64,000 nucleotides of DNA from Candidatus Nomurabacteria bacterium (lineage in GTDB: Bacteria; Patescibacteriota; Patescibacteriia; HK-STAS-PATE-3), in the NCBI GenBank assembly GCA_023898465.1, contig CP060223.1, positions 224,001-288,000 of the forward strand. Direction: 5' to 3'. The notes under the pieces are model-generated. The model was not told the DNA's origin. It saw only the letters and a program-made list of their open reading frames with translations, and ran no database searches. The first letter of the stretch is position 1, and every line of letters begins with the position of its first letter. A program made the position numbers and the translations under genes. Below, piece by piece: positions 1,898-33,357 of the stretch.

Positions 1898-1906
1898 AAT
1901 ACATAT

Positions 1907-2326
1907 ATGGAAAACGCTAAGCAAAAAGGATTAGGACTAATTGAGCTCATTATCATTATCGGCCTTTTTGGCTTATTGATCGTGCTTGGCGTGATAATGT
2001 TAGGGAACGAGCGGGCTCGGACGCGGGATAGCCAGCGTTTGGCTGATATGACACGGGTGCAGGCAGCTTTTCAGCTGCTCTATTACACACAGGCAAGCTA
2101 CGCCGAGGCAGCGGATGGCTGTGATGAGGTGGGGACTGCGGTGGCTGCGTGTGGATTAGATCGCTACCTGAACGGAATTGGTACTTTGCAAGATCCGGGG
2201 TCTTTCTCTTACCGCATTGCCAAAGTGCCGGATGAGCACGGCTACGCGGTTGAGTTTACCTTAGAGCGCGGATATGGCACCCTAGCCCCGGGGTCGCATT
2301 TCTTGACTGAGCAGGGGATTCAATAA
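1907..2326 (+). CDS. pilin-like protein with a degenerate prepilin motif (GLGLIELIIIIGLFG)
   Basis: N-terminus MENAKQKGLGLIELIII retains E at +5 after G, followed by a hydrophobic helix. Confidence 0.6.
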   Translation: MENAKQKGLGLIELIIIIGLFGLLIVLGVIMLGNERARTRDSQRLADMTRVQAAFQLLYYTQASYAEAADGCDEVGTAVAACGLDRYLNGIGTLQDPGSFSYRIAKVPDEHGYAVEFTLERGYGTLAPGSHFLTEQGIQ

Positions 2327-2334
2327 CGATTCAG

Positions 2335-3099
2335 ATGGGGGATATGGACCAAAGCATCGCACTCATTGGCGCTATTGCGGTAGCTGTCTTTGGTTTGATT
2401 ATTGGCAGCTTTTTAAATGCAGCGCTCTGGCGGATGCGGGTACGGCGCTCTTTAGTAAGCGATCGTTCGCGATGTCCACATTGCAAGCACGTGCTTGGTC
2501 CAGCTGAACTCATCCCAGTGTTTAGTTTTTTCTGGCAGCGTGGTCGCTGTCGGCACTGCCGCCGCAAAATTTCCTGGTGGTATCCCGGCATAGAGCTGGC
2601 AACAGCGGCAGTGTTTTGCGTGAACTGGTTTCGTTTTGGTTTATCAACTGAGTTTTTTTACGTCACTGTTATTTCCGCTTTCCTCATTGTCATTTTCGTC
2701 TATGATGCGCGCTACAGTTTAATTCTCGATCGAGTTTCTTTGCCAGGCGCGGCATTGGCCTTCATCGGCAGTTTGTTACTTGGTGTGCCTTTTTGGGACG
2801 TGCTGCTCGGCGCGCTGATTGGTGGAGGATTCTTTTTCCTGCAGTATGTCATTTCCCGTGGTCGCTGGATTGGCGGAGGTGATATGCGTCTCGGGCTGCT
2901 GCTTGGTGCCTTCTTAGCCTGGCCGGAAATTGTCTTTGCACTGTGCCTCGCCTATATATTGGGATCGTTATATGGCATTGGTCTGGTTTTGAGTAAGAAG
3001 AAGTCTTGGCAAAGCGCTATTCCCTTCGGCACCTTTTTGAGTTTAGCAGCATACATTTTTTATTTAATGAGCGATCGTGTCCTTCCATACCTCACCTAA
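2335..3099 (+). CDS. pilD: prepilin leader peptidase / N-methyltransferase (peptidase A24, PilD family)
   Basis: A CxxC...CxxC zinc-binding tetracysteine (CPHCKH...CRHCRR) is followed by polytopic membrane segments and a GGGDMRLG active-site-like motif. Confidence 0.85.
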   Translation: MGDMDQSIALIGAIAVAVFGLIIGSFLNAALWRMRVRRSLVSDRSRCPHCKHVLGPAELIPVFSFFWQRGRCRHCRRKISWWYPGIELATAAVFCVNWFRFGLSTEFFYVTVISAFLIVIFVYDARYSLILDRVSLPGAALAFIGSLLLGVPFWDVLLGALIGGGFFFLQYVISRGRWIGGGDMRLGLLLGAFLAWPEIVFALCLAYILGSLYGIGLVLSKKKSWQSAIPFGTFLSLAAYIFYLMSDRVLPYLT

Positions 3100-3751
3100 A
3101 AAATCGCAGCACGGTTTCACAATGATTGAGCTAGTTGTCTCAATCGCAATTTTTGGCATACTCGCCGGGATTCTTGGTTGGAATTTTAGCCGCTTCCGAG
3201 AAAATGATGATTTACGTCTAGCCGCTGAACAGCTGATGACTGATCTTCGTACTGCGCAAAATACTGCCATGACCGGTCAGGTGATTGATGATCCAGGACC
3301 AGGAGATCCAGCCGTGCCAATTGGCGGCTATGGCATTCATTTTAATCTCAACATAGGCAACAACGAATATTGGATGTTTGCGGATCGAGAGAGTTACAGT
3401 GGGACAACTTGTGTTCCTGTACGCAACGAGCGCTTTGATCAATTAGTAGCCGACCCTCCGAGCACGTGTATGACTGATGGGGTGAATGATGATTTAGATG
3501 CAGCGCCTAATCCGGTACAATTACCCGGCGATGTGATTATTGAAGCCTTGCGAGTAGATGGAACACAAAGCATTACCGACGTGGCCTTTTTGCCTCCTAA
3601 ACCACTCCCTTATGTAGCTTACGGCGATCTGACAAATGCCGCCGTAGCTGGGAAAACTATTGAGATTGACCTCCGTCATACCGTGACAAACCAGCTCCGA
3701 AGGGTTACTGTAGTAGGAGCATCAGGTCAAATAAGTGTCAGCACACCATAA
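3077..3751 (+). CDS. pseudopilin / minor pilin (prepilin N-terminal motif)
   Basis: Contains HGFTMIELVVSIAIFGILAG. The start overlaps the 3' end of pilD. Confidence 0.7.
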   Translation: MSFHTSPKKSQHGFTMIELVVSIAIFGILAGILGWNFSRFRENDDLRLAAEQLMTDLRTAQNTAMTGQVIDDPGPGDPAVPIGGYGIHFNLNIGNNEYWMFADRESYSGTTCVPVRNERFDQLVADPPSTCMTDGVNDDLDAAPNPVQLPGDVIIEALRVDGTQSITDVAFLPPKPLPYVAYGDLTNAAVAGKTIEIDLRHTVTNQLRRVTVVGASGQISVSTP

Positions 3752-3757
3752 TTATCT

Positions 3758-4342
3758 ATGCATCGATTTTCACACAATCAAGAAGGTCAAACCCTGGTCG
3801 AGGTGATTATCGCGGTTTCGATTCTCTTGGCTGGTATTGTTACCTCCTTAACCCTTGGCATTGTGACGGTGCGGGCTGGTCAAGTGTCCCAAAACCGTAC
3901 GATTGCAGATAATCTAGCTCGGGAGGGTTTAGAGTTGGTGCGTACTATGCGCGATACCAATTGGCTGCAGGATAATGTATGGGACCAGGGCTTATGTGCC
4001 TCTGATGACACTACTGCTATTCCAGATTTTTTACCGGATGTAAATGCGTGGAGTCTTGATTTCAGCGTAGATGATTTTGCGGACGCCAATGCACAGGTCT
4101 TATATAGAGAAGATCGAGAAAATTCACTTCGCCCGCTTGATTACTACATGCAAACAGCTGGACCTCGACCGGACGGATCAACGCCGAGTCGCTTCCGTCG
4201 TTTATTAACGATTAGTTCTGATGACGGTAGCTGTGTCGATGCTGATGTCTCGTATACAGTGAAGTCAGAAGTGCAGTGGGATGAGGGTGGAACAACCCAT
4301 TCCTCAATAGTAGAAGAGCGACTCTTTGATTGGAGGACATGA
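3758..4342 (+). CDS. pseudopilin, PilV-like (prepilin motif GQTLVEVIIAVSILLAG)
   Basis: N-terminal G-QTLVE motif plus a hydrophobic helix. Confidence 0.65.
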   Translation: MHRFSHNQEGQTLVEVIIAVSILLAGIVTSLTLGIVTVRAGQVSQNRTIADNLAREGLELVRTMRDTNWLQDNVWDQGLCASDDTTAIPDFLPDVNAWSLDFSVDDFADANAQVLYREDRENSLRPLDYYMQTAGPRPDGSTPSRFRRLLTISSDDGSCVDADVSYTVKSEVQWDEGGTTHSSIVEERLFDWRT

Positions 4343-18462: not shown

Positions 18463-20550
18463 TTGCCACGAGAATATAGCCTAAATAACACCCGAAATAT
18501 TGGAATTATTGCGCACATTGACGCTGGTAAGACCACCGTGAGTGAGCGTATTTTGTATTACACCGGTAAGAAGCATAAAATCGGCGAGGTGCACGAGGGT
18601 GAAGCAGAAATGGACTGGATGGAGCAGGAGCGGGAACGTGGTATTACTATTACCGCTGCGGCTACCACCTGTTTCTGGAAAGACCATCGCATCAACATTA
18701 TCGATACCCCAGGTCACATTGACTTCACCGTAGAAGTACAGCGCTCTTTGCGCGTGCTTGATGGCGGTGTGGTGGTTTTTGATGGCGTGGCCGGTGTGGA
18801 ACCTCAGTCTGAAACTGTATGGAACCAAGCTGAGAAATTTGGCGTGCCTCGCATCTGTTTTGTGAACAAGATGGACCGCATGGGCGCAGATTTTTACAAA
18901 GACCTTGATTCAATTCATGAACGTCTTACCAAGAGCGCTCACCCGGTGCAGCTCCCAATTGGTGCTGCAGAAACCTTCCAAGGCATTATCGACCTCTTTA
19001 CCCGGACTGCTCGTGTATACACCGACGATATGGGTAAGGAATGGACAGATCAAGAAGTTCCGGAAGACATGAAAGAGCAGGTTGAGCAATATCGCAGCCA
19101 ACTCATTGAAGCAATTGTCGAGCACGATGAAGTATTGATGAATGCATACTTAGAAGGTAACGAACCTTCCATCGAAGATTTGCAAAAGACTCTCCGCAAA
19201 GCCTGCATTGCTAACCAATTAGTGCCGGTGCTTTGTGGCTCTGCTTTGAAGAACAAAGGCGTTCAGTTCTTAATGGATGCCGTAAACACGTACCTCCCAT
19301 CACCATTGGATGTGCCACCAGTGACCGGTACTGACCCGAAGACTGAACAGGAAGTGCAGCGAGAAACAGCTGATACTGCACCATTCTCAGCCTTAGCTTT
19401 CAAAATTGCTGCTGACCCATTTGTTGGTAAGCTTGCTTTCTTCCGTGTGTACTCTGGAATGATTAAGTCTGGCTCCTACATATACAATTCTACTACAGGA
19501 AATAAAGAGCGCATCGGTCGTATTGTTCGCTTGCACGCAAATCACCGAGAAGAAGTAGATGAGGTCTACGCCGGTGACATTGCCGCGGCCGTGGGATTAA
19601 AAGAAACAAAGACTGGTGACACGCTTTGCGATGAAGAGCACCCAATCGTGCTTGAATCCATTACCTTCCCAGCACCAGTTATCTCAGTGGCTATTGAGCC
19701 AAAAACCAAGGCTGACCAAGAAAAAATGGGTGTGGCGCTCGGTCGTTTGGCTGAAGAGGACCCAACTTTCCAGGTGAAATCTGACACTGAAACCGGTCAA
19801 ACCATTATTGCTGGTATGGGTGAACTTCACCTTGACATTATTGTCGATCGCATGAAGCGCGAGTTTAAAGTAGAAGCAAATGTTGGTAAGCCGCAGGTTG
19901 CCTACCGCGAAACCGTTACTGCCATGGCCGAGGGTGAAGGTAAATACATCCGTCAGTCAGGTGGACGCGGACAATATGGTCACTGTAAATTACGCGTCGA
20001 GCCTTTGGAACGCGGTACCGGCGTTGAGTTTGTTGACGCAGTAAAGGGCGGTAATATTCCTCGAGAGTACATCCCAGCTATTGAAAAAGGTATTCGCGAA
20101 GCGGCTGATAACGGTGTGTTGGCTGGTTATCCCTATGTTGACTTCCGAGCTACTGTACTTGATGGTAGTTATCACGAAGTCGACTCTTCAGAAGCGGCTT
20201 TCAAAATCGCTGGTTCTATGGGTTTGAAAGATGCCACTAAAAAGGCAAAGCCGGTTATTCTTGAGCCTGTTATGAAGATCGAAGTAGTAACTCCAGAAGA
20301 ATTCATGGGCGATGTGATTGGTGACCTGAACTCCAAGCGGGCAACTATTAAAGAAATGCGTGATCGAGCAAACACCAAAGTGATTGATGCTGATGTACCT
20401 TTGGCGGAAATGTTTGGCTATGCAACCGCACTTCGCTCCATGTCACAGGGCCGCGCTTCTTACTCTATGGAATTCTCACACTATGAGATTGTGCCACAGC
20501 ATGTTGCTGATACCATCATCGGTGAAAAGGCCAAAGCAAAAGCTGAATAG
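18463..20550 (+). CDS. fusA: elongation factor G
   Basis: GTPase motifs AHIDAGKTT and DTPGH, length 695 aa, EF-G domains III-V. Confidence 0.97.
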
Positions 20551-20626
20551 GTAAAGAAATACTTAAGAAAATATGAAGCGTTCGTGATGGACAATCACGG
20601 GCGCTTTTGGTTATAGTGATGACGGT

Positions 20627-21961
20627 ATGAAAAAGCAACTCGGGCCCCTGAGGTCACAAGGCGCAGCCCAGCGCGGTAACATACGGATTTTTGGTACCGT
20701 GCTTTTTGTTGTAGTGACTATCGCAATGAGCGTTCTTTTACTACGGTTGCCAGAAAAAAAGAATGGCAAAATTGCTGACTTGCCCTTTACTCCAGCTGAA
20801 AGAGTTGCCACACAGCCTCAAGAAGTGTTAGGAGCAAGTGATTTACCAGCAGGCAAGATAGTGCTTGCGCAACGAAGCGTTGTGGCAATTGACGGACAGG
20901 GCAATAATGCTTACCAATACGCCTTCTTTCTCAGCGATTTTACTGGGCAGCATCGTTTTACTTTTGCAAAAAGAGACGACCTACTTTACGAGGCAATGCA
21001 AGTTGTCGGCGGCGCATATTTAGCTGTATACGACGACAGCGGAGTGGGCACTAAAGACGTGTTCCGCTTTGATGGACAAGATCCATCATCCACCTTTGTT
21101 CCTCCATATCAGCCTGAAGGCGCTCTTTTTAGCGAGGATGGAAGCCAAATGGCATATGTGGAGAGTGATGAAATAGGTGATATGACGGTTATCGTGCGGA
21201 ATATGTCCACAAATGAGGTAGAGGAGTATGCCTCATCTGCGTTTTCCACAGACCCTGACGCTTCGCTGCTCCTCCAACCTTTAGCCTTTAGTATGGATAA
21301 TCAGGAGCTTTACATTGAGGCGATGCAGGATATTGGGCTCACTACTTCGCCCTATGTGCTTTATCGGGTCCAACTGTCTGATGCGTCAGTCACAACTGTA
21401 TTTCAGCAGGGTGAAGATGAGGTCAATACGCATTTTAAGCAGTTAGTAGGCCTTTTTTCCGATATGAATATGGCACTTTTTGAATCCCTCGATTATGGGG
21501 CTGCCAGTACGGCAATTGATAATGTGAATGTAAAAACCACTTTTACGACGCTCGATTTGACTACATTGGAGCAAAATGAATGGTTTCAGTATGAAAATGT
21601 AGCCTCACCCCTTGCGCACCAATACGCTTCTTTGAGTCCGGATCGGCAGTGGCTAGCCTTGGAATCGCTTGATCAGACAAATCCAGGAGTACTTCTTTGG
21701 AATACCGAGGATAAGTCATTCCGACGCTTAACAGCTACTGGTTCCTTCTTAGCCTGGAGTCCAGATAGTCGCTTTGTACTGACCGAGCAGGTGACTTTTG
21801 ATAATTCCGGGGCCTACACCTTGAGCTCAATTGACTTACAGAGCGGTAAGGAATATGTGATTTTTCAGCAAAGTGACCTAAGTGAAGGCACGGGTTTGAA
21901 TCAAATAGGCGATAGCTTTAGCTTGTTCTTGGGTATTGCCAGTGACTTATCCACAATCTAG
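20627..21961 (+). CDS. membrane-anchored protein with PD40/TolB-like beta-propeller repeats
   Basis: N-terminal TM helix (IRIFGTVLFVVVTIAMSVLLL). Repeated (L/W)SPD(R/S)..(L/V)... blades (LSPDRQWLALES, WSPDSRFVLTE). Confidence 0.55.
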   Translation: MKKQLGPLRSQGAAQRGNIRIFGTVLFVVVTIAMSVLLLRLPEKKNGKIADLPFTPAERVATQPQEVLGASDLPAGKIVLAQRSVVAIDGQGNNAYQYAFFLSDFTGQHRFTFAKRDDLLYEAMQVVGGAYLAVYDDSGVGTKDVFRFDGQDPSSTFVPPYQPEGALFSEDGSQMAYVESDEIGDMTVIVRNMSTNEVEEYASSAFSTDPDASLLLQPLAFSMDNQELYIEAMQDIGLTTSPYVLYRVQLSDASVTTVFQQGEDEVNTHFKQLVGLFSDMNMALFESLDYGAASTAIDNVNVKTTFTTLDLTTLEQNEWFQYENVASPLAHQYASLSPDRQWLALESLDQTNPGVLLWNTEDKSFRRLTATGSFLAWSPDSRFVLTEQVTFDNSGAYTLSSIDLQSGKEYVIFQQSDLSEGTGLNQIGDSFSLFLGIASDLSTI

Positions 21962-22069
21962 GTTTTTGGATAAAAGACTGCTAAAAACTTAATTTGGCTA
22001 ATATTAGCAAAATTTATTTTATCTTGAAAAACTAGGCCTAAACCCTTGCCAGGACAAAACAAGCCTGCT

Positions 22070-22098
22070 ATACTCGCCAGTGCATTCTGTCAAAGAAT
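22070..22098 (+). promoter_or_regulatory. putative sigma70 promoter (TTGCCA-17-TATACT) followed by the palindrome gcattctgtcaaagaatgc upstream of tuf
   Basis: Both hexamers and the spacing are seen in the sequence. A perfect inverted repeat lies 8 nt downstream. Confidence 0.4.
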
Positions 22099-22144
22099 GC
22101 GCCAATAATCATTGAATTTAATTGCAAATTAATCTCTAGAGAAC

Positions 22145-23329
22145 ATGGCAGAAAATTTTGAACGCTCGAAACCTCACAAGAACGTCGGTACTATTGGTCA
22201 CGTAGACCATGGTAAGACGACTTTAACTGCAGCAATCCTGAAGACATTGACTGACGCTGGTATGAAAGCGTCCAATCGTTCTGTCGATGAGATTGATAGC
22301 GCGCCTGAAGAAAAGGCACGCGGTATTACTATTGCTACTGCGCACGTTGAGTATGAGACTGAAAAGTATCACTATGCGCACGTTGACTGTCCTGGTCACG
22401 CTGACTATGTGAAAAACATGATCACCGGTGCCGCACAGATGGACGGTGCTATCTTGGTGGTGTCAGCAACTGACGGTCCTATGCCTCAGACTCGCGAACA
22501 CATTCTCTTGGCCTACCAGGTTGGTGTGCCAAAGATTGTCGTTTTCTTGAACAAAATTGACCAAGTCCAAGACCAAGAGCTTATTGAATTGGTTGAAGTT
22601 GAAATTCGCGATCTCTTGAAGAAGTACGAATATCCTGGCGATGAAGTGCCGATTATTCGCGGTTCAGCTTTGAAGGCCTTAGAAGGCGACGAAGAAGCTA
22701 AGAAATCCATCATGGAGCTTATGAAGGCTGTTGATGAGTATATTCCTGAGCCTGTTCGTGAAACAGAAAAGTCCTTCCTCATGCCTGTAGAAGATATCTT
22801 CTCCATTGAAGGTCGTGGTACCGTGGTTACCGGTCGTATTGAGAGCGGTATCATCAAGGTAAACGAAGAAGTTGAAATCGTCGGTATCCGAGACACCCAG
22901 AAGACTGTGGTGACCGGAGTAGAAATGTTCAACAAGACTTTGGACGAAGGTCGCGCTGGCGATAACGCCGGTCTCTTGATCCGCGGTTTGAAAAAGGAAG
23001 ATGTGGAGCGCGGACAAGTCTTGGCCAAGCCGGGTACTATCACCCCGCACACTGAATTTGAATGTGAAGTCTATATCTTAACCAAGGATGAAGGTGGTCG
23101 ACACACTCCATTCTTCAAGGGATATAAACCACAGTTCTACATTCGTACGACTGATGTGACCGGTGAAGTGATTCTTCCAGAAAACACTGAAATGGTTATG
23201 CCTGGCGACACCGTCAACATCAAGGTTACTCTCCAGAGTCCGATTGCCTTAACCGAGCAGCAGCGCTTCGCCATCCGCGAAGGCGGCCACACGGTCGGCG
23301 CCGGAGTCGTCACTAAGATTCTTAAGTAA
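22145..23329 (+). CDS. tuf: elongation factor Tu
   Basis: [15 protein letters not shown] and NKxD motifs. Length 394 aa. Confidence 0.97.
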
Positions 23330-23336
23330 GTGCTTA

Positions 23337-23385
23337 TCCGCCTCTCCTCACGGGACACCCAAGGACACGAGGCGGATTTGTAAAG
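23337..23385 (+). terminator. terminator/attenuator hairpin between tuf and rpsJ (atccgcctc...gaggcggat + TTTG)
   Basis: A 9-bp GC-rich inverted repeat with a short T-run. It is likely a partial terminator that allows read-through into the S10 operon. Confidence 0.5.
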
Positions 23386-23407
23386 CGATTCGATCATTCA
23401 ATCCACA

Positions 23408-23761
23408 ATGGCTGACAAGGAACACAAGGAAGCACCGAACAACGAAAGCGAAGCGCCATCGCAGCGTATTCGCATCAAGATTCGTGCATACGATCACAAG
23501 ATTGTAGACCAGTCGACTCGGACGATTATTGAAACTGCGCAGAAGTCTGGTGCAGCGGTAAAAGGACCAGTTCCTTTACCAACTGAGAAGACAAAGTACA
23601 CCGTACTGAAATCTTCCTTTGTGCATAAGAATGCTCGAGATCAATATGAAATGCGAGTGCACAAGCGCTTGCTGGACATTGTTGATCCGACACCAAAGAC
23701 TGTTGATGCATTGATGAGTTTGAGTCTACCAGCCGGTGTCGATATCGAAATTAAGATGTAA
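23408..23761 (+). CDS. rpsJ: 30S ribosomal protein S10 (with short N-terminal extension)
   Basis: [12 protein letters not shown]...[12 protein letters not shown]...[10 protein letters not shown] is the S10 core. Confidence 0.9.
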
Positions 23762-23990
23762 GTATGTCGATTGGTCAGTATATCTTACTTAATTTGCTGC
23801 CACTGATCGATTACCTTAAGTCTCTGTTTACTTAACACCTCGGTAATTGCGTTCTCGGGATGACAAGACTCGTAACGGTATAGCGTTAATCCCTAGATAA
23901 CCTTTTGCCAGCAAGCATCTCACCAACCGTGGTCATCAGGCCTCGTTCGGAAGTGATTGTCTGGCCTTCACGGTATTTTTGTGCAAGTGT

Positions 23991-24806
23991 ATGAAATTCA
24001 TTCTCGGTAAAAAACTTGGCATGTCTCAGCGCTTTCGACCTGACGGTACGAGAGTGTCAGTCACCCACGTGCAAGCCACTCCAATGGTTGTCACGCAGGT
24101 AAAGACAGCGGAAAAAGACGGCTATACTGCCGTCCAGCTTGGTATGACTGGCAAGCGTAATCTATCCAAGCCAGTTCAGCAGCACCTGAAGGATTTACCA
24201 CAAGTTGCCGAGCTGCATGAATTTCGCATGGACGACACTGCTAAATTCGAACGCGGTCAAACCTATACTGTACAGACTTTCACGCCAGGCGATGCCGTAA
24301 AGGTAACTGGAATTTCCAAAGGTAAAGGTTTCGCCGGTGTGGTAAAGCGTCATGGATTCGGCGGTAGTCCTAAAACACACGGTCATAAAGATCAACTTCG
24401 CATGCCTGGTTCCATTGGTGCAACAGACGCACAACGCGTTATGAAAGGTAAGCGCATGGCTGGTCGCATGGGCGCCGAACAAGTAACTATTCGCAATCTT
24501 GAAATCGTTGACATTGATGCCGAACATAATGAGCTCCTTATTTCCGGAGCAGTGCCTGGCGCGCGTCATGGATTGTTAATCATCACTGCTGAAGGAGATA
24601 TGCCTGAGCCAGTCCAAGAGCAAAAGCAGGAAGCTCCAGCAGAAGAGGTAAACAAGGTTGAGGAAGTTGCCAAGCCAGAAAATCCTGAAACTGAAGTAAA
24701 GGCAGAAGCGAGTGACGAAAAAACCGAAACCCCAGCAGCTGAAGTAACTCCAGAAAAGGCTGAAGAGAAAACTGAGGAAAATACCGAAGCGAAAAAGGAA
24801 GCCTAG
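23991..24806 (+). CDS. rplC: 50S ribosomal protein L3 with about 70-aa acidic/Lys-rich C-terminal tail
   Basis: MKFILGKKLGMSQ... is the L3 core. The C-terminal EAPAEEVNKVEEVAKPENPETEVKAEASDEKTET... tail is low complexity. I chose ATG 23991; the track ORF starts at 23979. Confidence 0.9.
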   Translation: MKFILGKKLGMSQRFRPDGTRVSVTHVQATPMVVTQVKTAEKDGYTAVQLGMTGKRNLSKPVQQHLKDLPQVAELHEFRMDDTAKFERGQTYTVQTFTPGDAVKVTGISKGKGFAGVVKRHGFGGSPKTHGHKDQLRMPGSIGATDAQRVMKGKRMAGRMGAEQVTIRNLEIVDIDAEHNELLISGAVPGARHGLLIITAEGDMPEPVQEQKQEAPAEEVNKVEEVAKPENPETEVKAEASDEKTETPAAEVTPEKAEEKTEENTEAKKEA

Positions 24807-24808
24807 GT

Positions 24809-25159
24809 ATGAAGAAACGGGGGCAGACCTATAACAAGCTAGTCCGCGATCTCATCCCCGAGATTATCGCCGAAGACGGTTATCACGCTGAGATCAGGGT
24901 GCTCGATGAAGTAGAGTATCTCAAAGCCCTTCGAGAAAAACTTTTCGAAGAAGCTAAAGAACTTGCCGAGGCTCCTGATGTCACCGCGATAACCAATGAA
25001 CTCATTGATCTTTATGAAGTGCTCGCCGCCTTTGAAAAGGCCTATGGACTCCGTCACAGCGAAGTGATCGAGCTCCAGGAAAAGAAGCGAGCTGAGCGCG
25101 GTGGATTCAAGAAACGCCTCTTCCTAGTTCGCACAGAGCTGGATGAGGATGAAGAATAA
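24809..25159 (+). CDS. all-alpha NTP pyrophosphohydrolase (MazG/HisE superfamily, COG4997-like) inserted in the S10 operon
   Basis: YNKLVRDLIPEII...EEAKELAEA...ELIDLYEVLAA...KKRAERGGFKKRLFL matches the small 'house-cleaning' NTP-PPase family (YNKLVRDRIPEII ... KK.ERGGF). Confidence 0.75.
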   Translation: MKKRGQTYNKLVRDLIPEIIAEDGYHAEIRVLDEVEYLKALREKLFEEAKELAEAPDVTAITNELIDLYEVLAAFEKAYGLRHSEVIELQEKKRAERGGFKKRLFLVRTELDEDEE

Positions 25160-25163
25160 TTTC

Positions 25164-25802
25164 ATGGAAAAAGTACAGACAACAATTCATGGTAAAGACG
25201 GCGCAGCTGCCGGAAATCTCGACCTCGACCCTTCAGTTTTCGGGATTGAGTGGAACGACGGATTAATCTATCAGGTCGTTCGCGTGCAGCAGCTTAATCG
25301 TCGACAGCCAGTGGCTCATACCAAAACTCGCGCAGAGGTGAGTGGTGGTGGTAAGAAGCCATGGCGTCAAAAAGGTACCGGTCGAGCCCGTCATGGTTCG
25401 ATTCGCTCGCCAATTTGGGTCGGTGGTGGTGTAGCCTTTGGTCCGCGCAATACTCGCGTGTATGCCTTAAAGGTGAACACCAAGGCCCGTCGTAAAGCGA
25501 TTCGTATGGCCTTGAGCGCCAAGTTACAGCACGATCAGATGTATGTGATTGATGATTTGCAGCTTGATCCAATGAAGACAAAGACCTTAGCTGACCTACT
25601 GAAGACGCATAAGTTAAAGAAGGTAACTCTGGTTCCTCCACAGCATATGCCTGAGCTGCGACGTATCGCAAAGAATATGCCTAATGTAAATGTTATCCGA
25701 GCTGACAGCTTAAATACCGTTGACATTCTGAACTCCAGCGTGTTATTGATGCCGAAGCAATCAGTCGAGGTAATTGAAAAAACTTTTCGTCCAAAAGAGT
25801 AA
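25164..25802 (+). CDS. rplD: 50S ribosomal protein L4
   Basis: GGGKKPWRQKGTGRARHGSIRSPIWVGGGVAFGP is the L4 core. Start chosen at ATG 25164, just after the upstream stop. Confidence 0.9.
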   Translation: MEKVQTTIHGKDGAAAGNLDLDPSVFGIEWNDGLIYQVVRVQQLNRRQPVAHTKTRAEVSGGGKKPWRQKGTGRARHGSIRSPIWVGGGVAFGPRNTRVYALKVNTKARRKAIRMALSAKLQHDQMYVIDDLQLDPMKTKTLADLLKTHKLKKVTLVPPQHMPELRRIAKNMPNVNVIRADSLNTVDILNSSVLLMPKQSVEVIEKTFRPKE

Positions 25803-25808
25803 TCCATC

Positions 25809-26330
25809 ATGGGAATTTTTGACCGCTTCACTCAGAAGCAAGACAAGAAAACACTGCAGGAAAAAGCCTCTCGTTCTGAGCGTCAGAAGGAGACAGTGAA
25901 GGCTGCAGCCAAGCGAGCTGAGGAAGAAAAGAAAAAGTCTTTTCAGTCAGTCCCGGCAGCTGGTAAAAAATCTGAAGTAAAGGAAGAGAAGAAGGAAGTG
26001 GAAAAGACAAGTGCAGCTGCACCGGTCAAAGCTAAGAAGACTGACACTGCGGCAGCTGATACTGTGCTGGTAAGGCCGATTATTACTGAAAAAGCCGGAT
26101 ATCTCAGCGCTAAGCATCAATACATTTTCGAGGTGCATCCTCAAGCAAATAAGATCATGATTCAGAAGGCGATTGAAGCAAATTATGGCGTACGGCCAAT
26201 CCGGGTAAATATTATCACGGTAGCTGGTCGAGAAGTTCGTTACGGACGCACCACTGGCCGCACAAATTTCTGGAAAAAAGCAATTGTGACATTACCAAAA
26301 GATAAGACTATTGACGTGTACGAGGTCTAA
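25809..26330 (+). CDS. rplW: 50S ribosomal protein L23 with about 80-aa Lys/Glu-rich N-terminal extension
   Basis: C-terminal core VLVRPIITEKA...FEVHPQANKIMIQKAIE. The N-terminal KE-rich extension is low complexity. Confidence 0.85.
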   Translation: MGIFDRFTQKQDKKTLQEKASRSERQKETVKAAAKRAEEEKKKSFQSVPAAGKKSEVKEEKKEVEKTSAAAPVKAKKTDTAAADTVLVRPIITEKAGYLSAKHQYIFEVHPQANKIMIQKAIEANYGVRPIRVNIITVAGREVRYGRTTGRTNFWKKAIVTLPKDKTIDVYEV

Positions 26331-26332
26331 GT

Positions 26333-27172
26333 ATGGCATTGAAGAAATACAAGCCAACCACACCTGGACGACGAGCCTCCTCAGTCGTCGATACCTCGTA
26401 TCTGACAAAGAAGCGTCCAGAGAAAAAGTTAATCTTCCGAGTGAAGAAGACGGGCGGACGTAACAGTCAGGGTAAAATTACTGTGCGTCACCGCGGCGGT
26501 GGCGAAAAGCGATTTTATCGCATGGTAGATTTTTTGCAGAATCGCTATGACGATGCAGCAAGCGTCATCGCGCTTGAGTATGATCCAAACCGCAGCGCTC
26601 ACATTGCATTGATCGAATTCCCTGATAAAGAGCGACGTTATATTCTCGCTCCACAAGGTTTGCAAGTTGGCGATACAGTTACTTCAGCTAAAGAGAAGAC
26701 TGCCATCCAAACCGGTAATCGCATGCCGATCGAGTTTATTCCAACTGGACTTTTCCTTCACAATATTGAATTGAAGCCGGGTGCAGGTGGGAAGCTTGTT
26801 CGTTCAGCTGGTATGCAGGCGAGCCTCATGGCCATCGATGGTGACTATGCGCAGATTAAGATGCCATCAGGTGAAGTACGAAAGTTTTCTAAAAAAGTGC
26901 ACGCGTCCATCGGTCAAATTGGAAATGTTGATCACGGTAATGTCCGCATTGGTAAGGCCGGTCGCGTACGCCGCATGGGTTTCCGTCCATCAGTTCGTGG
27001 TAAGGCCATGAACCCAGTTGATCACCCACACGGTGGTGGAGAAGGAAATCAGCCAATTGGTTTGAAGCATCCGAAGACCCCATGGGGCAAACCAGCCCTT
27101 GGCGTCCGTACTCGACGTCGTAAAGCGAGTGATGCATTGATTCTTCAACGTCGTAAAACTAAGAAGAGGTAA
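26333..27172 (+). CDS. rplB: 50S ribosomal protein L2
   Basis: Conserved L2 sequence (GRNSQGKITVRHRGGG...HPHGGGEG). Confidence 0.95.
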   Translation: MALKKYKPTTPGRRASSVVDTSYLTKKRPEKKLIFRVKKTGGRNSQGKITVRHRGGGEKRFYRMVDFLQNRYDDAASVIALEYDPNRSAHIALIEFPDKERRYILAPQGLQVGDTVTSAKEKTAIQTGNRMPIEFIPTGLFLHNIELKPGAGGKLVRSAGMQASLMAIDGDYAQIKMPSGEVRKFSKKVHASIGQIGNVDHGNVRIGKAGRVRRMGFRPSVRGKAMNPVDHPHGGGEGNQPIGLKHPKTPWGKPALGVRTRRRKASDALILQRRKTKKR

Positions 27173-27175
27173 GCT

Positions 27176-27511
27176 ATGTCACGAAGTCTAAAAAAAGGAC
27201 CATGGACTGACCCAAAGCTTCTCAAAAAGCTGGAGAAGTTTAAGAAGGGCGATCGCACGGTTATCAAAACTTGGTCACGCGATTCAGTTATTACGCCTGA
27301 AATGGTTGGATTCACCTTCGGTGTGCACAATGGCAAAGATCATATTTCAGTATTCGTGGTAGAAAATATGGTAGGACATCGCTTAGGTGAATTCTCCCCA
27401 TCACGTAAATTTGTTCGACACGGTGGACGTATGCAAAAAGAGGCTGAGCAAGCCGCTGCTGCAGCTCAGAAAAAGCAGACTGAGGCAGCTCAAACACCCG
27501 CCAAAAAATAA
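27176..27511 (+). CDS. rpsS: 30S ribosomal protein S19 (C-terminal Ala/Gln-rich tail)
   Basis: [10 protein letters not shown]...[11 protein letters not shown]. Confidence 0.9.
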
Positions 27512-27516
27512 TAACT

Positions 27517-28020
27517 ATGGAATTTCGAGCTCACATTTCTTATTTGCGCATTGCCCCTCGTAAGGTTCGCTTAGTAGCCGGACTCTTGCGTGGTAAGCGT
27601 GTCGATCAAGCGCTGCACCAGCTGCAGATTCTTCGTAAGGGTTCTACTAGCCCCTTACGCAAACTCTTGCTCTCGGCAGTAGCAAATGCAGCAAAGCAAG
27701 ATAAAAAGGCTGAAGATTTGTATGTTGCCACATTAGTGGTAAACGAAGGACCTCGCTTAAAGCGTTACCGCCCACGAGCCTTTGGTCGAGCTGCAGTTAT
27801 TCTGAAACGATCTTCTCACATCACCCTTACCTTGACAGATCAGCAAAAGGGTGGCAAAAAGAGCAAGTTATCTGCAAAAGAAGAAGCAAAGTCTGCTGAA
27901 GCGACTGAAGTGAAGAAAGAAGAGAAAAAGGCAGAGACAAGTAAAGCTGCGGCCCCTAAAAAGACTGCAACAAAGAAAGCTACTACTTCAACGGTAAAAA
28001 AGCCTCGCGCTAAGAAATAG
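27517..28020 (+). CDS. rplV: 50S ribosomal protein L22 (C-terminal Lys/Ala-rich tail)
   Basis: L22 core plus a KKSKLSAKEEAKSAEATEVKKEEKKAETSKAAAPKK tail. Confidence 0.9.
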   Translation: MEFRAHISYLRIAPRKVRLVAGLLRGKRVDQALHQLQILRKGSTSPLRKLLLSAVANAAKQDKKAEDLYVATLVVNEGPRLKRYRPRAFGRAAVILKRSSHITLTLTDQQKGGKKSKLSAKEEAKSAEATEVKKEEKKAETSKAAAPKKTATKKATTSTVKKPRAKK

Positions 28021-28021
28021 T

Positions 28022-28705
28022 ATGGGACAAAAAGTTCATCCAATTGGTTTTCGACTGGGTATTAATCGGAATTGGAATTCCCGATGGTTCTCAGCTCGTG
28101 CATATCGCGAATATCTGAAGCAGGATGTAAACATTCGTAAGCACATTACGAATAAGCTGAAAAATTCAGGTATTTCTCGCATCGACATCGAGCGTTCATC
28201 CGGCAGTATGACTGTCACCATTCATACCTCTAAGCCTGGCTTAGTGATCGGTCGTGGTGGCGCTGCTAGCGAAGAGTTGCGCGTTGAGATCCGCCGAAAA
28301 TTCATCCGAGACCCAAAGCTCCAACTGAAGTTGAGCATTCAAGAAATTACCCGCCCGGAAGTTGATGCAAATATCGTTGTCCAAAACGTTATTGAGCAAT
28401 TAGAAAAGCGTATGCCTTTCCGCCGCGTATTAAAGACCACGATTGAGTCAGTCAAGCGCGCAGGTGCTGAAGGTGTTAAAGTCATGGTAGCAGGTCGCCT
28501 CAACGGCGCAGAAATTGCTCGAACAGAATACTTAACCTGGGGCAAACTTCCTCTGCAAACCATTCGCGCGAACATTGATTACAGTCGCGGTGTGGCTCGA
28601 ACTATTTACGGCGCAATTGGCGTAAAGGTCTGGATTTATAAGGGTGAAGTCTTTGCTAAAGAGCAGGGCAATACTGAAGAAGAGCCTCTTGGAACGGTTC
28701 TCTAA
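28022..28705 (+). CDS. rpsC: 30S ribosomal protein S3
   Basis: MGQKVHPIGFRLG... KH domain. Confidence 0.95.
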   Translation: MGQKVHPIGFRLGINRNWNSRWFSARAYREYLKQDVNIRKHITNKLKNSGISRIDIERSSGSMTVTIHTSKPGLVIGRGGAASEELRVEIRRKFIRDPKLQLKLSIQEITRPEVDANIVVQNVIEQLEKRMPFRRVLKTTIESVKRAGAEGVKVMVAGRLNGAEIARTEYLTWGKLPLQTIRANIDYSRGVARTIYGAIGVKVWIYKGEVFAKEQGNTEEEPLGTVL

Positions 28706-28720
28706 GCCAACAATTTTTCT

Positions 28721-29137
28721 ATGTTAACTCCACGTAAAGTAAAGCATCGTAAATGGCATCGCGGCCGAGTCCGCGGTAAAGCGCAGCGCAAAATCGCGTT
28801 GAGCTTCGGCCAATACGGCATCAAGGCGCAGAGCTCGGCTTGGATGACAGCTCGTCAAATTGAAGCAGCCCGCCGTGCCATCACTCGTTTTATGCAAAAA
28901 GGTGGTAAAGTCTGGATTCGCATTTTCCCTGATAAGCCAGTGACGATTAAAGGTAATGAAATCCGCATGGGTGGAGGTAAAGGTTCAGTTGATCACTATG
29001 TTGCCGTAGTGAAGCCAGGTACAGTACTCTTTGAGATCAGCGGTGTTGATCGCGATACGGCAAAAGAAGCACTTCGGCTCGCTTCCTACAAGCTGCCGGT
29101 GCAAACACGATTTATTGAAAAAGTACACGTCGCATGA
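28721..29137 (+). CDS. rplP: 50S ribosomal protein L16
   Basis: [11 protein letters not shown]...[16 protein letters not shown]. Confidence 0.95.
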
Positions 29138-29340
29138 AACAGCAGGAATTACAAAATAAGACTGCGGCTGAGCTACAAAAAATTCTGGCTGAGAAGCGAG
29201 CTGAGTTGCGTGAATTACGTTTCAAGGTTGCGAATGGTCAGCTCAAAGACGTGCGTGATGTACGAACAGTCCGTAAGACTATTGCCCGTGTGCTGACTAT
29301 GTTGCACACTATGAAGTCAAAAGCAACGTCAAACTCCTAA
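29134..29340 (+). CDS. rpmC: 50S ribosomal protein L29
   Basis: 68 aa, KTAAELQKILAEKRAELRELRFK. Position in operon. Confidence 0.85.
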   Translation: MKQQELQNKTAAELQKILAEKRAELRELRFKVANGQLKDVRDVRTVRKTIARVLTMLHTMKSKATSNS

Positions 29341-29344
29341 TTTT

Positions 29345-29608
29345 ATGAACGAAGCATCATCAAAAAAAGTGCAGCAACGAACCCTGGAAGGTACTGTCGT
29401 ATCAACCAGCATGGATAAAACGCTTGTGGTTCGAGTAGAGCGCACAAAGCTCCATCCTAAATACGACAAGCGCTATATCACCACAAAGAAATTCTTGGTG
29501 CATGATCCAAAAAATAGCCATAAAGTCGGTGATAAAGTGCGCTTTGTTGCTTCACGTCCGATTTCCAAGCGGAAGCGATGGCTGGTTGTTGAGGAGAAAA
29601 GCTCATGA
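29345..29608 (+). CDS. rpsQ: 30S ribosomal protein S17
   Basis: [18 protein letters not shown]...HPKYDKRY. Confidence 0.9.
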
Positions 29609-29976
29609 TTCAACCTCGCACACTTCTCGTATTAGCTGATAACTCCGGCGCCCGCCGACTCCGCTGCATTAAAGTGCTTGGTGGTTACAAGAAGCGTTAT
29701 GCTCGCTTAGGCGATATCATCACTGCTTCAGTCATTGAAGCAACTCCGCACTCAGCAGTGAAGAAGGGTGAAGTCGTCCACGCGGTTATCGTACGCACTC
29801 GTAAAGAAACATTGCGCAAGGACGGATCCACTATTCGATTTGACGATAATGCCGCGGTATTAGTTGATCAAAAGAGTAAAGAACCTCGTGCCACTCGTAT
29901 TTTCGGACCAATTGGCCGTGAAATTAAGCAGCTGGGATTTGCAAAGATCGCATCTCTCGCTCCTGAAGTTTTGTAA
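29605..29976 (+). CDS. rplN: 50S ribosomal protein L14
   Basis: [17 protein letters not shown]... conserved. Confidence 0.95.
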
Positions 29977-29981
29977 AACGT

Positions 29982-30290
29982 ATGTATATCAAGAAAGGCG
30001 ACAACGTGCAGATGACCACCGGTAAAGACCGGGGAAAAAAGGGTAAAGTCACCCAAGTTTTTCCTAGTGACCAGCGGGTTGTGGTGGAAGGCTTGAATAA
30101 GATGAGTAAGAATGTCCGTGCACGAAACGCAAATGAAAAAGGCCAAGTCGTTGCCTTTGACGCGCCAGTACATATTTCTAATGTTATGTTGCTTTGCCCA
30201 AAGTGTGGTAAGACCACTCGGGTAGCCTATCATGTGGCTGATGACAAAAAGTCTCGCCAGTGCCGTAAATGTAAAGAAGCTTTTGCTTAA
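29982..30290 (+). CDS. rplX: 50S ribosomal protein L24 with C-terminal C4 zinc-ribbon
   Basis: KOW motif IKKGDNVQMTTGKDRGKKGKV, then CPKCG...CRKC at the C-terminus. Confidence 0.85.
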   Translation: MYIKKGDNVQMTTGKDRGKKGKVTQVFPSDQRVVVEGLNKMSKNVRARNANEKGQVVAFDAPVHISNVMLLCPKCGKTTRVAYHVADDKKSRQCRKCKEAFA

Positions 30291-30296
30291 ATCTCT

Positions 30297-30842
30297 ATGA
30301 CTCGGATTCGTGAACGATATGTAAAGGAAGTTGTTCCAGAGCTCAAAAAAGAGTTTGGATACACCAATGACCTTTCAGTGCCTCGATTGGAAAAAATCGT
30401 GGTAAACGTGGGCGTTGGTCGATCGCTCAAGGATCCGAAGCATATCGAGTTTGTCACGAAGGCACTTGAGCGGATCACTGGTCAGAAGCCATCTCCACGC
30501 AAGGCTCGTCTCTCCATTTCTGGATTCAAGATTCGCAAAGGCATGGTGGTTGGTCTGACTGTTACACTGCGCGGCACACGTATGGATGAATTCTTTGACC
30601 GCTTAGTAAATATCAGCCTGCCACGTGTACGTGACTTCCAAGGCTTAGACGAAAAATCTTTTGGTCAATCTGGCAATTATTCACTTGGATTAAAAGAGCA
30701 CACTGTTTTCCCAGAAACGCAATCAGATGACATTGATCAAACCTTTGGACTCGAAATTACTATTGTAACGACCGCCAAGAATGCGGCCGAAGGGAAAGCA
30801 CTCTTAACTCACTTGGGTTTCCCATTCAAGAAAGACGAGTAG
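30297..30842 (+). CDS. rplE: 50S ribosomal protein L5
   Basis: Conserved L5 sequence. Confidence 0.95.
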
Positions 30843-30843
30843 T

Positions 30844-31038
30844 ATGGCTAAAGAATCTCAAATCGCAAAGAGTCGTAAGAACAGCAAAAAGGCGAAGTAT
30901 TCAACCCGAATTGTTCGCCGATGCTGGCGCTGTGGTCGCAAACGCGGATACATGCGTAAGTTTGATCTCTGTCGTATTTGTTTCCGTGAGTTAGCCACCC
31001 GAGGTGAGATTCCGGGTGTGAAAAAGTCTTCCTGGTAA
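30844..31038 (+). CDS. rpsZ: 30S ribosomal protein S14, zinc-binding type Z
   Basis: 64 aa with [20 protein letters not shown] (C4 zinc site). Confidence 0.9.
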
Positions 31039-32005: not shown

Positions 32006-32365
32006 ATGAGCACACATTTAATGCACAAACAAGCAAAATTACAGCGACGAAAGCGCCGAGTTCGCGCGCGAGTTTCTGGCACTGCTGAACGACCTCGTTT
32101 AAGCGTCAGCCGCAGCGTGAAACACGTGCTTGTTCAGTTAATTGATGACACTACGCATCGCACACTTTTAACTATGACTGATCGTGGAGCAAAAGATATC
32201 ACCGGTACGAAGACCGAACGAGCTCGCGAATTAGGAAAGCGTTTTGCCAAGGCCGCCCAAGAAAAGGGTCTTACCCAAGCAGTTTTTGATCGAGGCGGAC
32301 GACTTTATCACGGCCGTGTCCAAGCAATCGCTGAAGGCGCCCGAGAAGCCGGACTTAAATTATAA
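32006..32365 (+). CDS. rplR: 50S ribosomal protein L18
   Basis: RLSVSRS.KH...QLIDD... L18 core. Confidence 0.9.
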   Translation: MSTHLMHKQAKLQRRKRRVRARVSGTAERPRLSVSRSVKHVLVQLIDDTTHRTLLTMTDRGAKDITGTKTERARELGKRFAKAAQEKGLTQAVFDRGGRLYHGRVQAIAEGAREAGLKL

Positions 32366-32369
32366 GACT

Positions 32370-32885
32370 ATGAGCAATCAGCAACGACGATCTCGACGAG
32401 ATGTAGAACAAAAAGACCGCGAATTTGAGCAGCGGGTTGTAGAAATTAGTCGTGTTACCCGTGTGGTAGCCGGCGGTAAGCGCATGCGATTTCGTGCTAC
32501 GGTTGTGTTGGGTGATGCCAAGGGTCGGGTTGGTTACGGTACTCGGAAAGGTCTCGATGTCAGTGGTGCAGTCAGTAAGGCTTCTGCGGCAGCGCGTAAA
32601 ACCATGATGCGAGTTCCGATGCAAGAGACTACCATTCCTCATGAAGTAAATACGCATTACGGTGCCGCTCATGTGCTTTTGAAGCCAGCTCCAGCCGGTC
32701 GTGGTGTTATTGCTGGTGGTGCGGTCCGCATTGTCATGGAATTAGCAGGCGTTAAGGATGTGGTGGCAAAAATGTTTGGCTCACGTAATAAATTGAACAA
32801 CATTAAGGCTACGTTCCGTGCCTTAGAGCAACTCCGTCCACCAAAGCCAAAGAAGACGGAAGAGAAGGAGAAGTCACATGACTAA
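32370..32885 (+). CDS. rpsE: 30S ribosomal protein S5
   Basis: The internal ATG at 32370 (MSNQQRR...) gives a 171-aa S5 (RVVEISRVTRVVAGGKRMRFRA...). The longer track ORF starts at 32244 and overlaps L18. rplO follows directly, with no rpmD (L30). Confidence 0.9.
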   Translation: MSNQQRRSRRDVEQKDREFEQRVVEISRVTRVVAGGKRMRFRATVVLGDAKGRVGYGTRKGLDVSGAVSKASAAARKTMMRVPMQETTIPHEVNTHYGAAHVLLKPAPAGRGVIAGGAVRIVMELAGVKDVVAKMFGSRNKLNNIKATFRALEQLRPPKPKKTEEKEKSHD

Positions 32886-33357
32886 AGGTTTGCACACACT
32901 TCGCCAACCAAAAGGTGCTAAGTCTGGCAAGCGACGAGGTCGCGGTCATGGCAGCGGTTTAGGTACCTATTCCGGACGCGGTATGAAGGGTCAGCGAGCT
33001 CGTACTGGTGGACGCCAAGGAACCCTGCGACGTACCATGAAGCAGTTGATTGCTCGCATACCAAAGACGCGAGGTTTTTCCAGCGGCAAAAAAGCAGCAA
33101 CTGAAGTATACCTCAGTCAGCTCAATGTTTTTCCTGAGGGCAGTGAAGTATATCCTGGCTTATTGAAGAAACAGGGGATTATTCAGAGTGATCGACTCGT
33201 GAAGGTGATCGGCAACGCTGGATTGGAAAAAAGGCTTGATGTGAAGGCACATCGCTTTTCTGAAGGTGCTCGACGTGCTATAACTGAAAAAGGTGGCAAA
33301 GTTGTTCTCCTTCCTTTACCAATCGGTCCGCAACCAAAGCGACATCAAAGCTCATAG
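32878..33357 (+). CDS. rplO: 50S ribosomal protein L15
   Basis: Gly/Arg-rich N-terminus GKRRGRGHGSG...GRGMKGQ. Confidence 0.9.
   Translation: MTKGLHTLRQPKGAKSGKRRGRGHGSGLGTYSGRGMKGQRARTGGRQGTLRRTMKQLIARIPKTRGFSSGKKAATEVYLSQLNVFPEGSEVYPGLLKKQGIIQSDRLVKVIGNAGLEKRLDVKAHRFSEGARRAITEKGGKVVLLPLPIGPQPKRHQSS

Follow-up and report, generated by a model that had tools for sequence, protein, structure and literature searches.

The S10 operon is among the most rigid gene arrangements in bacteria. Here we examine a stretch of 64,000 nucleotides from a Candidatus Nomurabacteria genome (contig CP060223.1, positions 224,001 to 288,000; the window hereafter), in which the gene order of this operon is canonical except for a single extra open reading frame (ORF) between rplC, encoding ribosomal protein L3, and rplD, encoding L4. 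Its product is a homologue of the MazG-superfamily nucleoside triphosphate (NTP) pyrophosphohydrolases. Because the gene is already annotated generically in GenBank, the family assignment itself is not new; what is new is that a subfamily confined to one lineage sits embedded in the operon, and that its catalytic tetrad is degenerating. The literature searched contained no prior description of a MazG-type gene in the S10 operon, or of a conserved gene between rplC and rplD. A non-ribosomal gene that a deep lineage has retained at this junction makes operon capture open to study in a natural experiment of a rare kind. A mere hitch-hiking house-cleaning enzyme, if that is what the protein is, would be a modest lineage-specific curiosity.

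The closest described systems frame the comparison. MazG proper (PF03819), with structures from E. coli (3crc), M. tuberculosis (7yh5), S. solfataricus (1vmg), and Bacillus (5ie9 and YpjD, 2gta), shares with the window protein the superfamily fold, a four-residue Mg2+ site, and the expected conversion of NTP to nucleoside monophosphate (NMP) and pyrophosphate (PPi). The window protein differs in having no PF03819 match, a single short domain, and other terminal motifs. In M. tuberculosis MazG, the Mg2+ tetrad is composed of Glu119, Glu122, Glu138, and Asp141, and alanine substitutions at these positions reduce activity, with 20–40% remaining in E122A, E138A, and D141A, and with E119A being the most damaging mutant (PMC10014863). 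HisE, or PRA-PH (PF01503; 2a7w, 1yvw, 1y6x, 1yxb), provides the closest solved structures and the closest Pfam model, being likewise small and all-alpha with aligned EExxE and ExxD motifs, but the window protein falls below its threshold, carries extra terminal motifs, and lies outside any histidine-biosynthesis context. A family of small stand-alone NTP pyrophosphatases is nearer still, having in common with the window protein the length class, the motifs, and all invariant residues. Its members, however, are free-standing, and none lies beside S10, L3, L4, or L23 in the 84 loci sampled outside the clade described below (79 of them metagenome loci). In contrast to the rest of this small family, the S10-embedded clade is marked by invariant residues of its own, by tails at both termini, and by a metal tetrad that is degenerating.

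Precedents also exist for the genomic arrangement. Non-ribosomal genes described within ribosomal clusters (Brandis 2021, PMC8046335) include secY-adk-map in the spc operon and nrdHEF between rplL and rsmC, along with tusDCB and bfd-bfr inserted between operons. The likeness is that a metabolic or housekeeping gene has become fixed in a conserved, co-expressed cluster of translation genes. The difference is that the insertion events noted from that paper lie between operons, save for nrdHEF inside the rpoBC operon, while the insertion in the window splits the S10 operon itself between two ribosomal protein genes with spacers of 2–4 nt. A MazG-superfamily protein has also been linked to the ribosome-assembly machinery, since binding of E. 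coli MazG to Era, a GTPase of ribosome assembly, has been reported (Zhang & Inouye 2002, cited in PMC10582724). That MazG is a different, two-domain protein.

Family assignment and predicted fold

A profile built from 31 members of the small family retrieved 7,658 clusters (50% identity) at E ≤ 1e-10 among 1.84 billion representatives, nearly all of them stand-alone proteins of ~105–115 aa, and single members of ~107 aa are representative of the group. Many homologues are named house-cleaning NTP pyrophosphatase (MazG superfamily) or NTP pyrophosphohydrolase by JGI or NCBI; the JGI product name, a predicted house-cleaning noncanonical NTP pyrophosphatase, is presumably the description of COG4997. 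Compared with free-standing family members, the window protein gives E-values of 1e-16 to 1e-24, and it scores 157 bits with the family hidden Markov model (HMM). It is the family that carries the assignment, while Pfam, the profile search of the PDB, and the fold search tie it weakly but consistently to HisE and MazG. PF03819 did not match the window protein even at E ≤ 10, and when the family members were scanned singly, PRA-PH, a family of the MazG clan, was matched by 26 of the 31 (best E = 3e-6) and MazG, weakly, by 10. Searched against the PDB, the family profile matched HisE structures, the best being 2a7w (E = 0.0039), where the EExxE and ExxD motifs line up. AlphaFold, run on the alignment, gives a confident, all-helical model with a mean predicted local distance difference test score (pLDDT) of 92.8, and its top Foldseek matches come exclusively from HisE, HisIE, and MazG (probabilities reaching 0.99–1.0); the predicted fold of the window protein is thus an all-alpha helical bundle resembling those of HisE and MazG.

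[quoted passage not shown] The earlier note, made from the DNA letters alone, had called it a MazG-superfamily NTP pyrophosphatase, and this holds: profile and fold searches lead to HisE and MazG only, the EExxE-x12-ExxD pattern is present, and no unrelated family emerged. Among other candidates, designer pentatricopeptide proteins appeared in a phmmer search of the PDB with the single protein, by summing sub-threshold repeats to residues 44–67 with no domain passing, and were set aside as spurious. The PADLOC defence families did not match the window protein, and the PHROGs gave no convincing match (best E = 0.007, to an entry of unknown function). The finding also draws attention to an abundant, uncharacterised branch of the MazG superfamily, with thousands of clusters, whose substrate could bear on how ultra-small bacteria that depend on hosts salvage nucleotides.

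Since the best Pfam, PDB, and Foldseek matches are all HisE, and since a MazG-family protein acts as HisE in Desulfovibrio (PMC5764234), the protein could in principle be the phosphoribosyl-ATP pyrophosphatase of histidine biosynthesis. We reject this identity as highly improbable on score, motifs, and context. The only Pfam match of the window protein, to PRA-PH, reaches 15.6 bits (E = 0.022) against a gathering score of 21.3; the N- and C-terminal motifs of the family lie outside the HisE-aligned regions; and no his genes are adjacent in the window, in the clade loci, or in the other family loci whose gene tables were examined. The family also occurs in Streptomyces and cyanobacteria, which normally possess a canonical hisIE, and, to our knowledge, histidine biosynthesis is generally absent from Patescibacteria.

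The magnesium site of the window copy

Three features define family members: YxKLVRDxIPEII near the N-terminus, the acidic site EExxE-x12-ExxDxxE in the centre, and ERGGF towards the C-terminus. The two motifs that the earlier note had read in the ORF, YNKLVRDLIPEII and ERGGFKKRLFL, are both present in the translation. Across the family, the invariant residues are R13, D14, I16, P17, I19, I20, K44, E47, E48, E64, D67, E70, R97, G98, G99, F100, and L106, with E51 nearly invariant, and the window protein has every one of them plus E51. Its E48, E51, E64, and D67 match the E-x2-E...E-x2-D Mg2+ tetrad of M. tuberculosis MazG. The window copy is probably still an active NTP pyrophosphohydrolase, as its site is intact, every family-invariant residue is kept, and it is the first branch of the clade in a distance tree.

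Placement between L3 and L4 and descent from a single capture

The S10-embedded clade comprises 10 distinct sequences from uncultured Patescibacteria, nine of which were traced through their genomic context to the L3-X-L4 position (Table 1). P0142, the tenth, is 95% identical to the ORF of metagenome contig L093 and is counted as a distinct sequence of that sub-lineage. While the window gene is separated from its neighbours by 2–4 nt, start/stop overlaps occur in most relatives, and in the subclade of L093, P0266, and P0267 the overlap measures 4 nt on either side of the gene. With a profile built from the clade, members score 174–217 bits and the rest of the family ≤116 bits. More distant homologues lie elsewhere, such as P0006 (57% identical), P0007 (55%), and P0116 (49%; Patescibacteria by source name).

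Table 1. Members of the S10-embedded clade, their loci, and the state of the Mg2+ tetrad (E48, E51, E64, D67).
Sequence	Loci	Position	Tetrad
P0001 (window protein)	window	L3-X-L4	intact
P0002	L001-L003	L3-X-L4	intact
P0268	L178/L179	L3-X-L4	intact
P0003	L005-L007	L3-X-L4	E51G
P0004	L004	L3-X-L4	E51G
P0005	L173	L3-X-L4	E51D
L093 ORF (60% identical)	metagenome contig L093	L3-X-L4	E51A
P0142			E51A
P0266	L177	L3-X-L4	E64K
P0267	L174-L176	L3-X-L4	E48G

For comparison, 80 S10 operons of GTDB species representatives, ~35 of them Patescibacteria, were fetched with the window L4. The best L4 match among these representatives is only 49% identical; the scan thus gave no close relative, and presence or absence in close relatives was taken from metagenome contigs. 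A family homologue between L3 and L4 was found in 0 of the 80 operons, where, with the exception of L023, the distance between the two genes is too short to hold one. The lineage specificity that the earlier note had suggested as a possibility is borne out, with clade members at L3-X-L4, none of the 80 other operons, and none of the 84 other loci; in close relatives, too, the gene lies at the same junction.

The exception, L023, is another uncultured bacterium with an unrelated 3.5-kb insertion at the rplC-rplD junction (476–3991), which encodes a 234-aa membrane protein and a 903-aa secreted protein that looks NlpC/P60-like by eye in its C-terminal part. After rplD, the place of rplW is taken by a thioredoxin-like ORF; either a genuine rearrangement or a chimeric contig could account for this arrangement.

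Neighbour joining of 119 family members, six of them S10-embedded, recovered these six as monophyletic (198 of 200 bootstraps), and the group adjacent to them holds the free-standing Patescibacterial copies P0007 and P0116. A distance tree with all ten sequences again sets the clade apart, with the window protein as the earliest and shortest branch. On the side of the host, a concatenated L3+L4 tree of 80 loci places the six insertion-bearing genomes in one clade (166 of 200 bootstraps), whose neighbours L013, L015, L019, and L033 are all without the gene. The most distant clade proteins are 50–57% identical, and synonymous sites are saturated between subclades. Where dS is measurable, dN/dS against orthologues is 0.09–0.35 (Nei-Gojobori), estimates slightly affected by the extension of some orthologue ORFs upstream to the previous stop; the MazG-like gene is under purifying selection. 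Between the window and L001 its non-synonymous divergence is 0.18, against 0.31 for both L3 and L4; the closer clade genomes in general give a value below those of these two ribosomal proteins, and L093 a comparable one.

We argue for one old capture in the ancestor of one uncultured Patescibacteria lineage, followed by vertical inheritance, given the congruent gene and host trees, the saturated synonymous sites, the lack of flanking repeats (a repeat search around the ORF returned only short chance repeats and none bracketing the gene), and a base composition like that of its neighbours (GC 0.49; 0.52 at third codon positions). That just 10 sequence clusters with this arrangement are present among the billions of proteins searched could be taken as the mark of a recent passenger, a mobile element, or an assembly artefact. 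The recurrence of the identical junction on independent contigs (JGI, ENA, NCBI, and Logan samples), the depth of divergence, the congruence of the trees, and the absence of repeats or compositional anomaly effectively refute such an origin, to which we assign next to no probability.

Erosion of the metal site within the clade

Alignment columns were compared between the clade and the rest of the family, and the comparison was repeated after 337 different sequences from outside the clade had been placed on the family HMM. In these 337 the four metal ligands are all but fixed: 336 have E48, 336 have E51, 335 have E64, and all have D67, with the full EEED tetrad missing in three. Among the clade members, 7 of 10 show a changed tetrad (Fisher p ~1e-10, without phylogenetic correction), as the result of at least five independent events (Table 1). 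Sequencing error is an unlikely source, as several of the altered proteins recur on multiple independent contigs. No clade sequence carries more than one tetrad change, and R13, D14, P17, K44, E47, D67, E70, and RGGF are unchanged in all ten. In essence, three of the Mg2+-ligand positions have been relaxed site by site within the clade, where the activity under selection has probably been attenuated or changed since capture.

The clade has at the same time gained residues of its own. K39, N63, E76, K77, H83, and I87 are clade-specific and invariant within it, F75, Y79, and R108 are nearly so, and most of them cluster at the turn between helix 3 and helix 4 of the AlphaFold model. The isoelectric point (pI) also shifts, in that the three intact clade proteins are acidic (4.9–5.3), like most of the family, while the altered ones range from 6.3 to 9.4.

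Taken together, these changes could reflect exaptation, in which the role of the protein has moved from catalysis to nucleotide binding or sensing, or to that of a ribosome-associated or assembly factor made alongside L3 and L4, while the hydrolase site decays. Three of the four ligand positions have been replaced independently in different lineages (E51G/D/A, E64K, and E48G), the E48G of P0267 falls on the equivalent of the most damaging M. tuberculosis mutant, a new conserved patch has formed at the helix 3/helix 4 turn, the altered proteins are neutral to basic, and purifying selection is still strong. The reported binding of E. coli MazG to Era would supply a precedent. In its fullest form, the clade would record the conversion of a pyrophosphohydrolase into a catalysis-independent, ribosome-linked protein, with the window copy as its least derived member and with relatives that lose Mg2+ ligands, gain a new surface, and turn basic. 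We regard exaptation as unlikely, and this full form of it as an improbable outcome. At most one ligand has changed in any sequence; every clade member keeps E47, D67, E70, K44, and the other family motifs, which implies that the site is still constrained; and the equivalent single mutants of M. tuberculosis MazG keep 20–40% of their activity (PMC10014863). The window copy, P0002, and P0268 are fully intact, and nothing found here points to binding of the ribosome. Only 10 sequences underlie the pI trend, and the free-standing outgroup P0116 is basic despite an intact site.

Proposed attenuation of an enzyme locked to high expression

We lean, with moderate confidence, towards the reading that the window gene still encodes an active pyrophosphohydrolase made at ribosomal-protein-like levels, and that later members of the clade have undergone attenuation or a relaxed selection on efficiency. 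By analogy with MazG and HisE, the protein would form a helical-bundle oligomer whose acidic residues hold Mg2+, and would cleave NTP between the alpha and beta phosphates to release NMP and PPi. A free-standing Patescibacterial copy was captured once at the rplC-rplD junction and has descended vertically since, and, having neither promoter nor terminator of its own, it would be expressed from the tuf-S10 transcript with translational coupling. A nucleotide-sanitising role would suit organisms dependent on nucleotide salvage. Once locked to such expression, efficiency per molecule might go unselected, or a lower activity might even be favoured in order to spare canonical NTPs, so that the replacement of one Mg2+ ligand per lineage would represent attenuation of an over-expressed enzyme, or relaxed selection, and not gene decay. 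Attenuation fits because one ligand is lost per lineage, the rest of the site is kept, and single mutants of the M. tuberculosis enzyme remain 20–40% active. A mundane house-cleaning role is the most likely outcome. The series of orthologues (three intact and seven single-ligand variants) could show the fate of an enzyme brought to the expression of a ribosomal protein, be it attenuation, relaxed selection, or a new role.

Several observations weigh against this reading. The PRA-PH match of the window protein stays below threshold, no NCBIfam model matches it, and a biochemical assay of any member of the small family was not found in the literature searched. Recurrent loss of otherwise invariant residues could instead be a sign that selection in the clade has ceased to act on catalysis, and the E48G of P0267 corresponds to E119A, the mutant that is most damaging in M. 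tuberculosis MazG; the degenerating metal site in most clade members complicates a simple view of the protein as a sanitising enzyme. Co-transcription and coupling are deduced from the DNA sequence. Outside the clade, moreover, ~10% of the sampled family loci adjoin a Type IV restriction-like helicase-nuclease and another ~10% an HNH nuclease, so the ancestral role may concern modified NTPs or deoxy-NTPs ((d)NTPs) rather than general sanitation.

The position of the gene, in the same apparent transcription unit as tuf and downstream of fusA, also recalls the idea of the earlier note that a nucleotide-sanitising or (p)ppGpp/NTP-hydrolysing activity is coupled to ribosome biogenesis. On this view the protein would be a dedicated regulator of guanine-nucleotide or (p)ppGpp (guanosine tetra- and pentaphosphate) pools for translation, hydrolysing (p)ppGpp, GTP, or damaged GTP. 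Overexpression of E. coli MazG lowers (p)ppGpp, which joins the binding of Era as a point in its favour (PMC10582724). By the same review, however, pppGpp is not a usable substrate for E. coli MazG (PMC10582724), and a cyanophage MazG does not hydrolyse the magic-spot nucleotides (PMC6850273). The sampled family loci elsewhere offer no translation-related context, and erosion of the catalytic site is hard to reconcile with an essential regulatory hydrolase. We regard a role as (p)ppGpp regulator as quite improbable.

Reading frame and expression signals

The ATG-start ORF was taken from the open-reading-frame list of the window, and its boundaries agree with the earlier account of a 116-aa gene between rplC and rplD with gaps of 2 and 4 nt: the rplC stop TAG (24804–24806) is separated by 'GT' from the ORF ATG at 24809, and the ORF stop TAA (25157–25159) by 'TTTC' from the rplD ATG at 25164. 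Its frame differs from those of both rplC and rplD, so the ORF is no extension of either. The rplD start at 25164 is preferred to an upstream in-frame ATG at 25143 (L093 L4 N-terminus, MEKVQT.. vs MTKLET..), and ATG 23991 is the most likely rplC start, backed by orthologue N-termini. A chance open frame is excluded by the 456 homologues at E ≤ 1e-3, the identical GenBank protein USN53750.1, the low dN/dS, and the mean pLDDT of the AlphaFold model. An antisense ORF at 24839..25057 (72 aa) was set aside as a by-product of the coding strand, and the family HMM run over the 64-kb window found no second copy.

Within 21500–30000, a consensus scan gives a single promoter-like site on the + strand, at 22046–22074 upstream of tuf, and between 22074 and 27613 it finds neither promoter-like nor terminator-like sites on that strand. 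From this, together with the tight spacing, the MazG-like gene would be co-transcribed from the tuf-S10 transcript and translationally coupled to its neighbours (Table 2).

Table 2. Features of the locus in the window.
Feature	Coordinates	Strand	Basis
Sigma-70-like promoter match upstream of tuf	22046..22074	+	Consensus scan, 10/12 matches, TG extension; consensus match alone
tuf (EF-Tu), first gene of apparent transcription unit	22145..23329	+	ORF translation; GTP_EFTU domains at orthologous positions in relatives
rpsJ (S10)	23408..23761	+	85-88% identity to S10 of clade relatives
Conserved RNA-like element	23831..23992	+	Alignments, RNAalifold, covariance model
rplC (L3), with E/K/A/P-rich C-terminal tail of ~65 aa	23991..24806	+	Pfam Ribosomal_L3, E = 1.3e-16
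Shine-Dalgarno-like AAGGAAG, 7 nt upstream of the ORF ATG, within the rplC 3' end	24795..24801	+	Read from sequence; putative role
MazG-superfamily (HisE/MazG-like) small all-alpha NTP pyrophosphohydrolase homologue, 116 aa	24809..25159	+	Homology, motifs, predicted fold
N-terminal family motif YNKLVRDLIPEII, residues 8-20	24830..24868	+	R13, D14, P17, I19, I20 invariant or nearly so across family
EEAKE (E47, E48, E51), first half of Mg2+ motif, intact	24947..24961	+	Aligns with EEAAE of HisE 2a7w
ELIDLYE (E64, D67, E70), second half of Mg2+ motif, intact	24998..25018	+	Sequence, family alignments
ERGGF C-terminal family motif, residues 96-100	25094..25108	+	Family alignments
rplD (L4)	25164..25802	+	Orthologue N-terminus supports start
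Genes after rplD, running on into rpmC, rpsQ, and spc genes	25809..29137	+	ORFs, Pfam

A conserved RNA-like element in the rpsJ-rplC spacer

The spacer between rpsJ and rplC (23762–23990, 229 nt) is occupied by most of a conserved RNA-like element, composed of a stem (UCUCGGGAU/AUCCCGAGA), a long-range GCCAG/CUGGC pairing, and a hairpin with a U-run just before rplC. RNAalifold predicts 14 pairs, three of which show compensatory changes. A strict motif of the element is present in all 14 clade loci that cover it and in none of the 80 GTDB loci. Beyond the window, the element is located at L001 3116–3164, L174 4240–4288, L179 1421–1474, and L013 3142–3299. Its covariance model, R1, scores 124 bits in the window and 42 bits (E ~2e-7) in L013, a sister locus without the MazG-like gene, and the element predates the capture of that gene. 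Rfam gave no match over 20000–31000 of the window, and the single-sequence fold z-score of the element (−0.74) is not significant. As a candidate leader or attenuator, it may bring rplC and the genes after it, from the MazG-like gene and rplD onwards, under common control.

Neighbouring genes and other loci

Outside the clade, the neighbour survey covered loci L094–L172 and L008–L012. At eight loci an 812-aa protein with PLDc_2, ResIII, and Helicase_C domains is encoded directly downstream of the family member (e.g., L149 786–3224), and it matches the PADLOC family mREase_IV, a Type IV methyl-directed restriction enzyme, at E = 6e-88. At nine loci a ~317-aa HNH endonuclease adjoins the family member (e.g., L115 3312–4265), and Nudix genes occur in four. 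The neighbours of P0116 are a canonical MazG, two Nudix genes, and a glyoxalase. These contexts suggest that in some lineages the family acts on modified (d)NTPs.

Three records with S10, L3, and L4 among the closest to those of the window (L015, L029, and L041) are titled 'uncultured Gammaproteobacteria bacterium'. L015 falls in the sister group of the insertion clade in the L3+L4 tree, and the titles are probably mislabelled.

Further along the window, secY, adk, and map come after rplO, as assigned by position and length. No rpmD (L30) gene is found between rpsE and rplO (32244–33357), in agreement with what is known of the Candidate Phyla Radiation (CPR)/Patescibacteria, and L15 (32878–33357; Pfam Ribosomal_L27A) starts inside the end of rpsE. 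Three ribosomal proteins of the operon carry low-complexity extensions rich in K, E, A, and P, at the C-terminus of L3 (24603–24803, ~65 aa), at the N-terminus of L23 ahead of its Pfam domain (25809–26063, ~85 aa), and at the C-terminus of L22 (27844–28017, ~55 aa); in the L093 lineage, L3 is 204 aa long and is without the tail. Between fusA and tuf lies a 444-aa ORF on the + strand (20627–21961), which is anchored by a hydrophobic N-terminal segment and matches nothing in Pfam. Genes of 410–447 aa without a convincing Pfam domain are likewise found directly upstream of tuf in L001, L004, L005, L174, and L178, with fusA just before it in L174 and L178, and we read the 444-aa ORF as a second lineage-specific insertion, in the str/tuf cluster.

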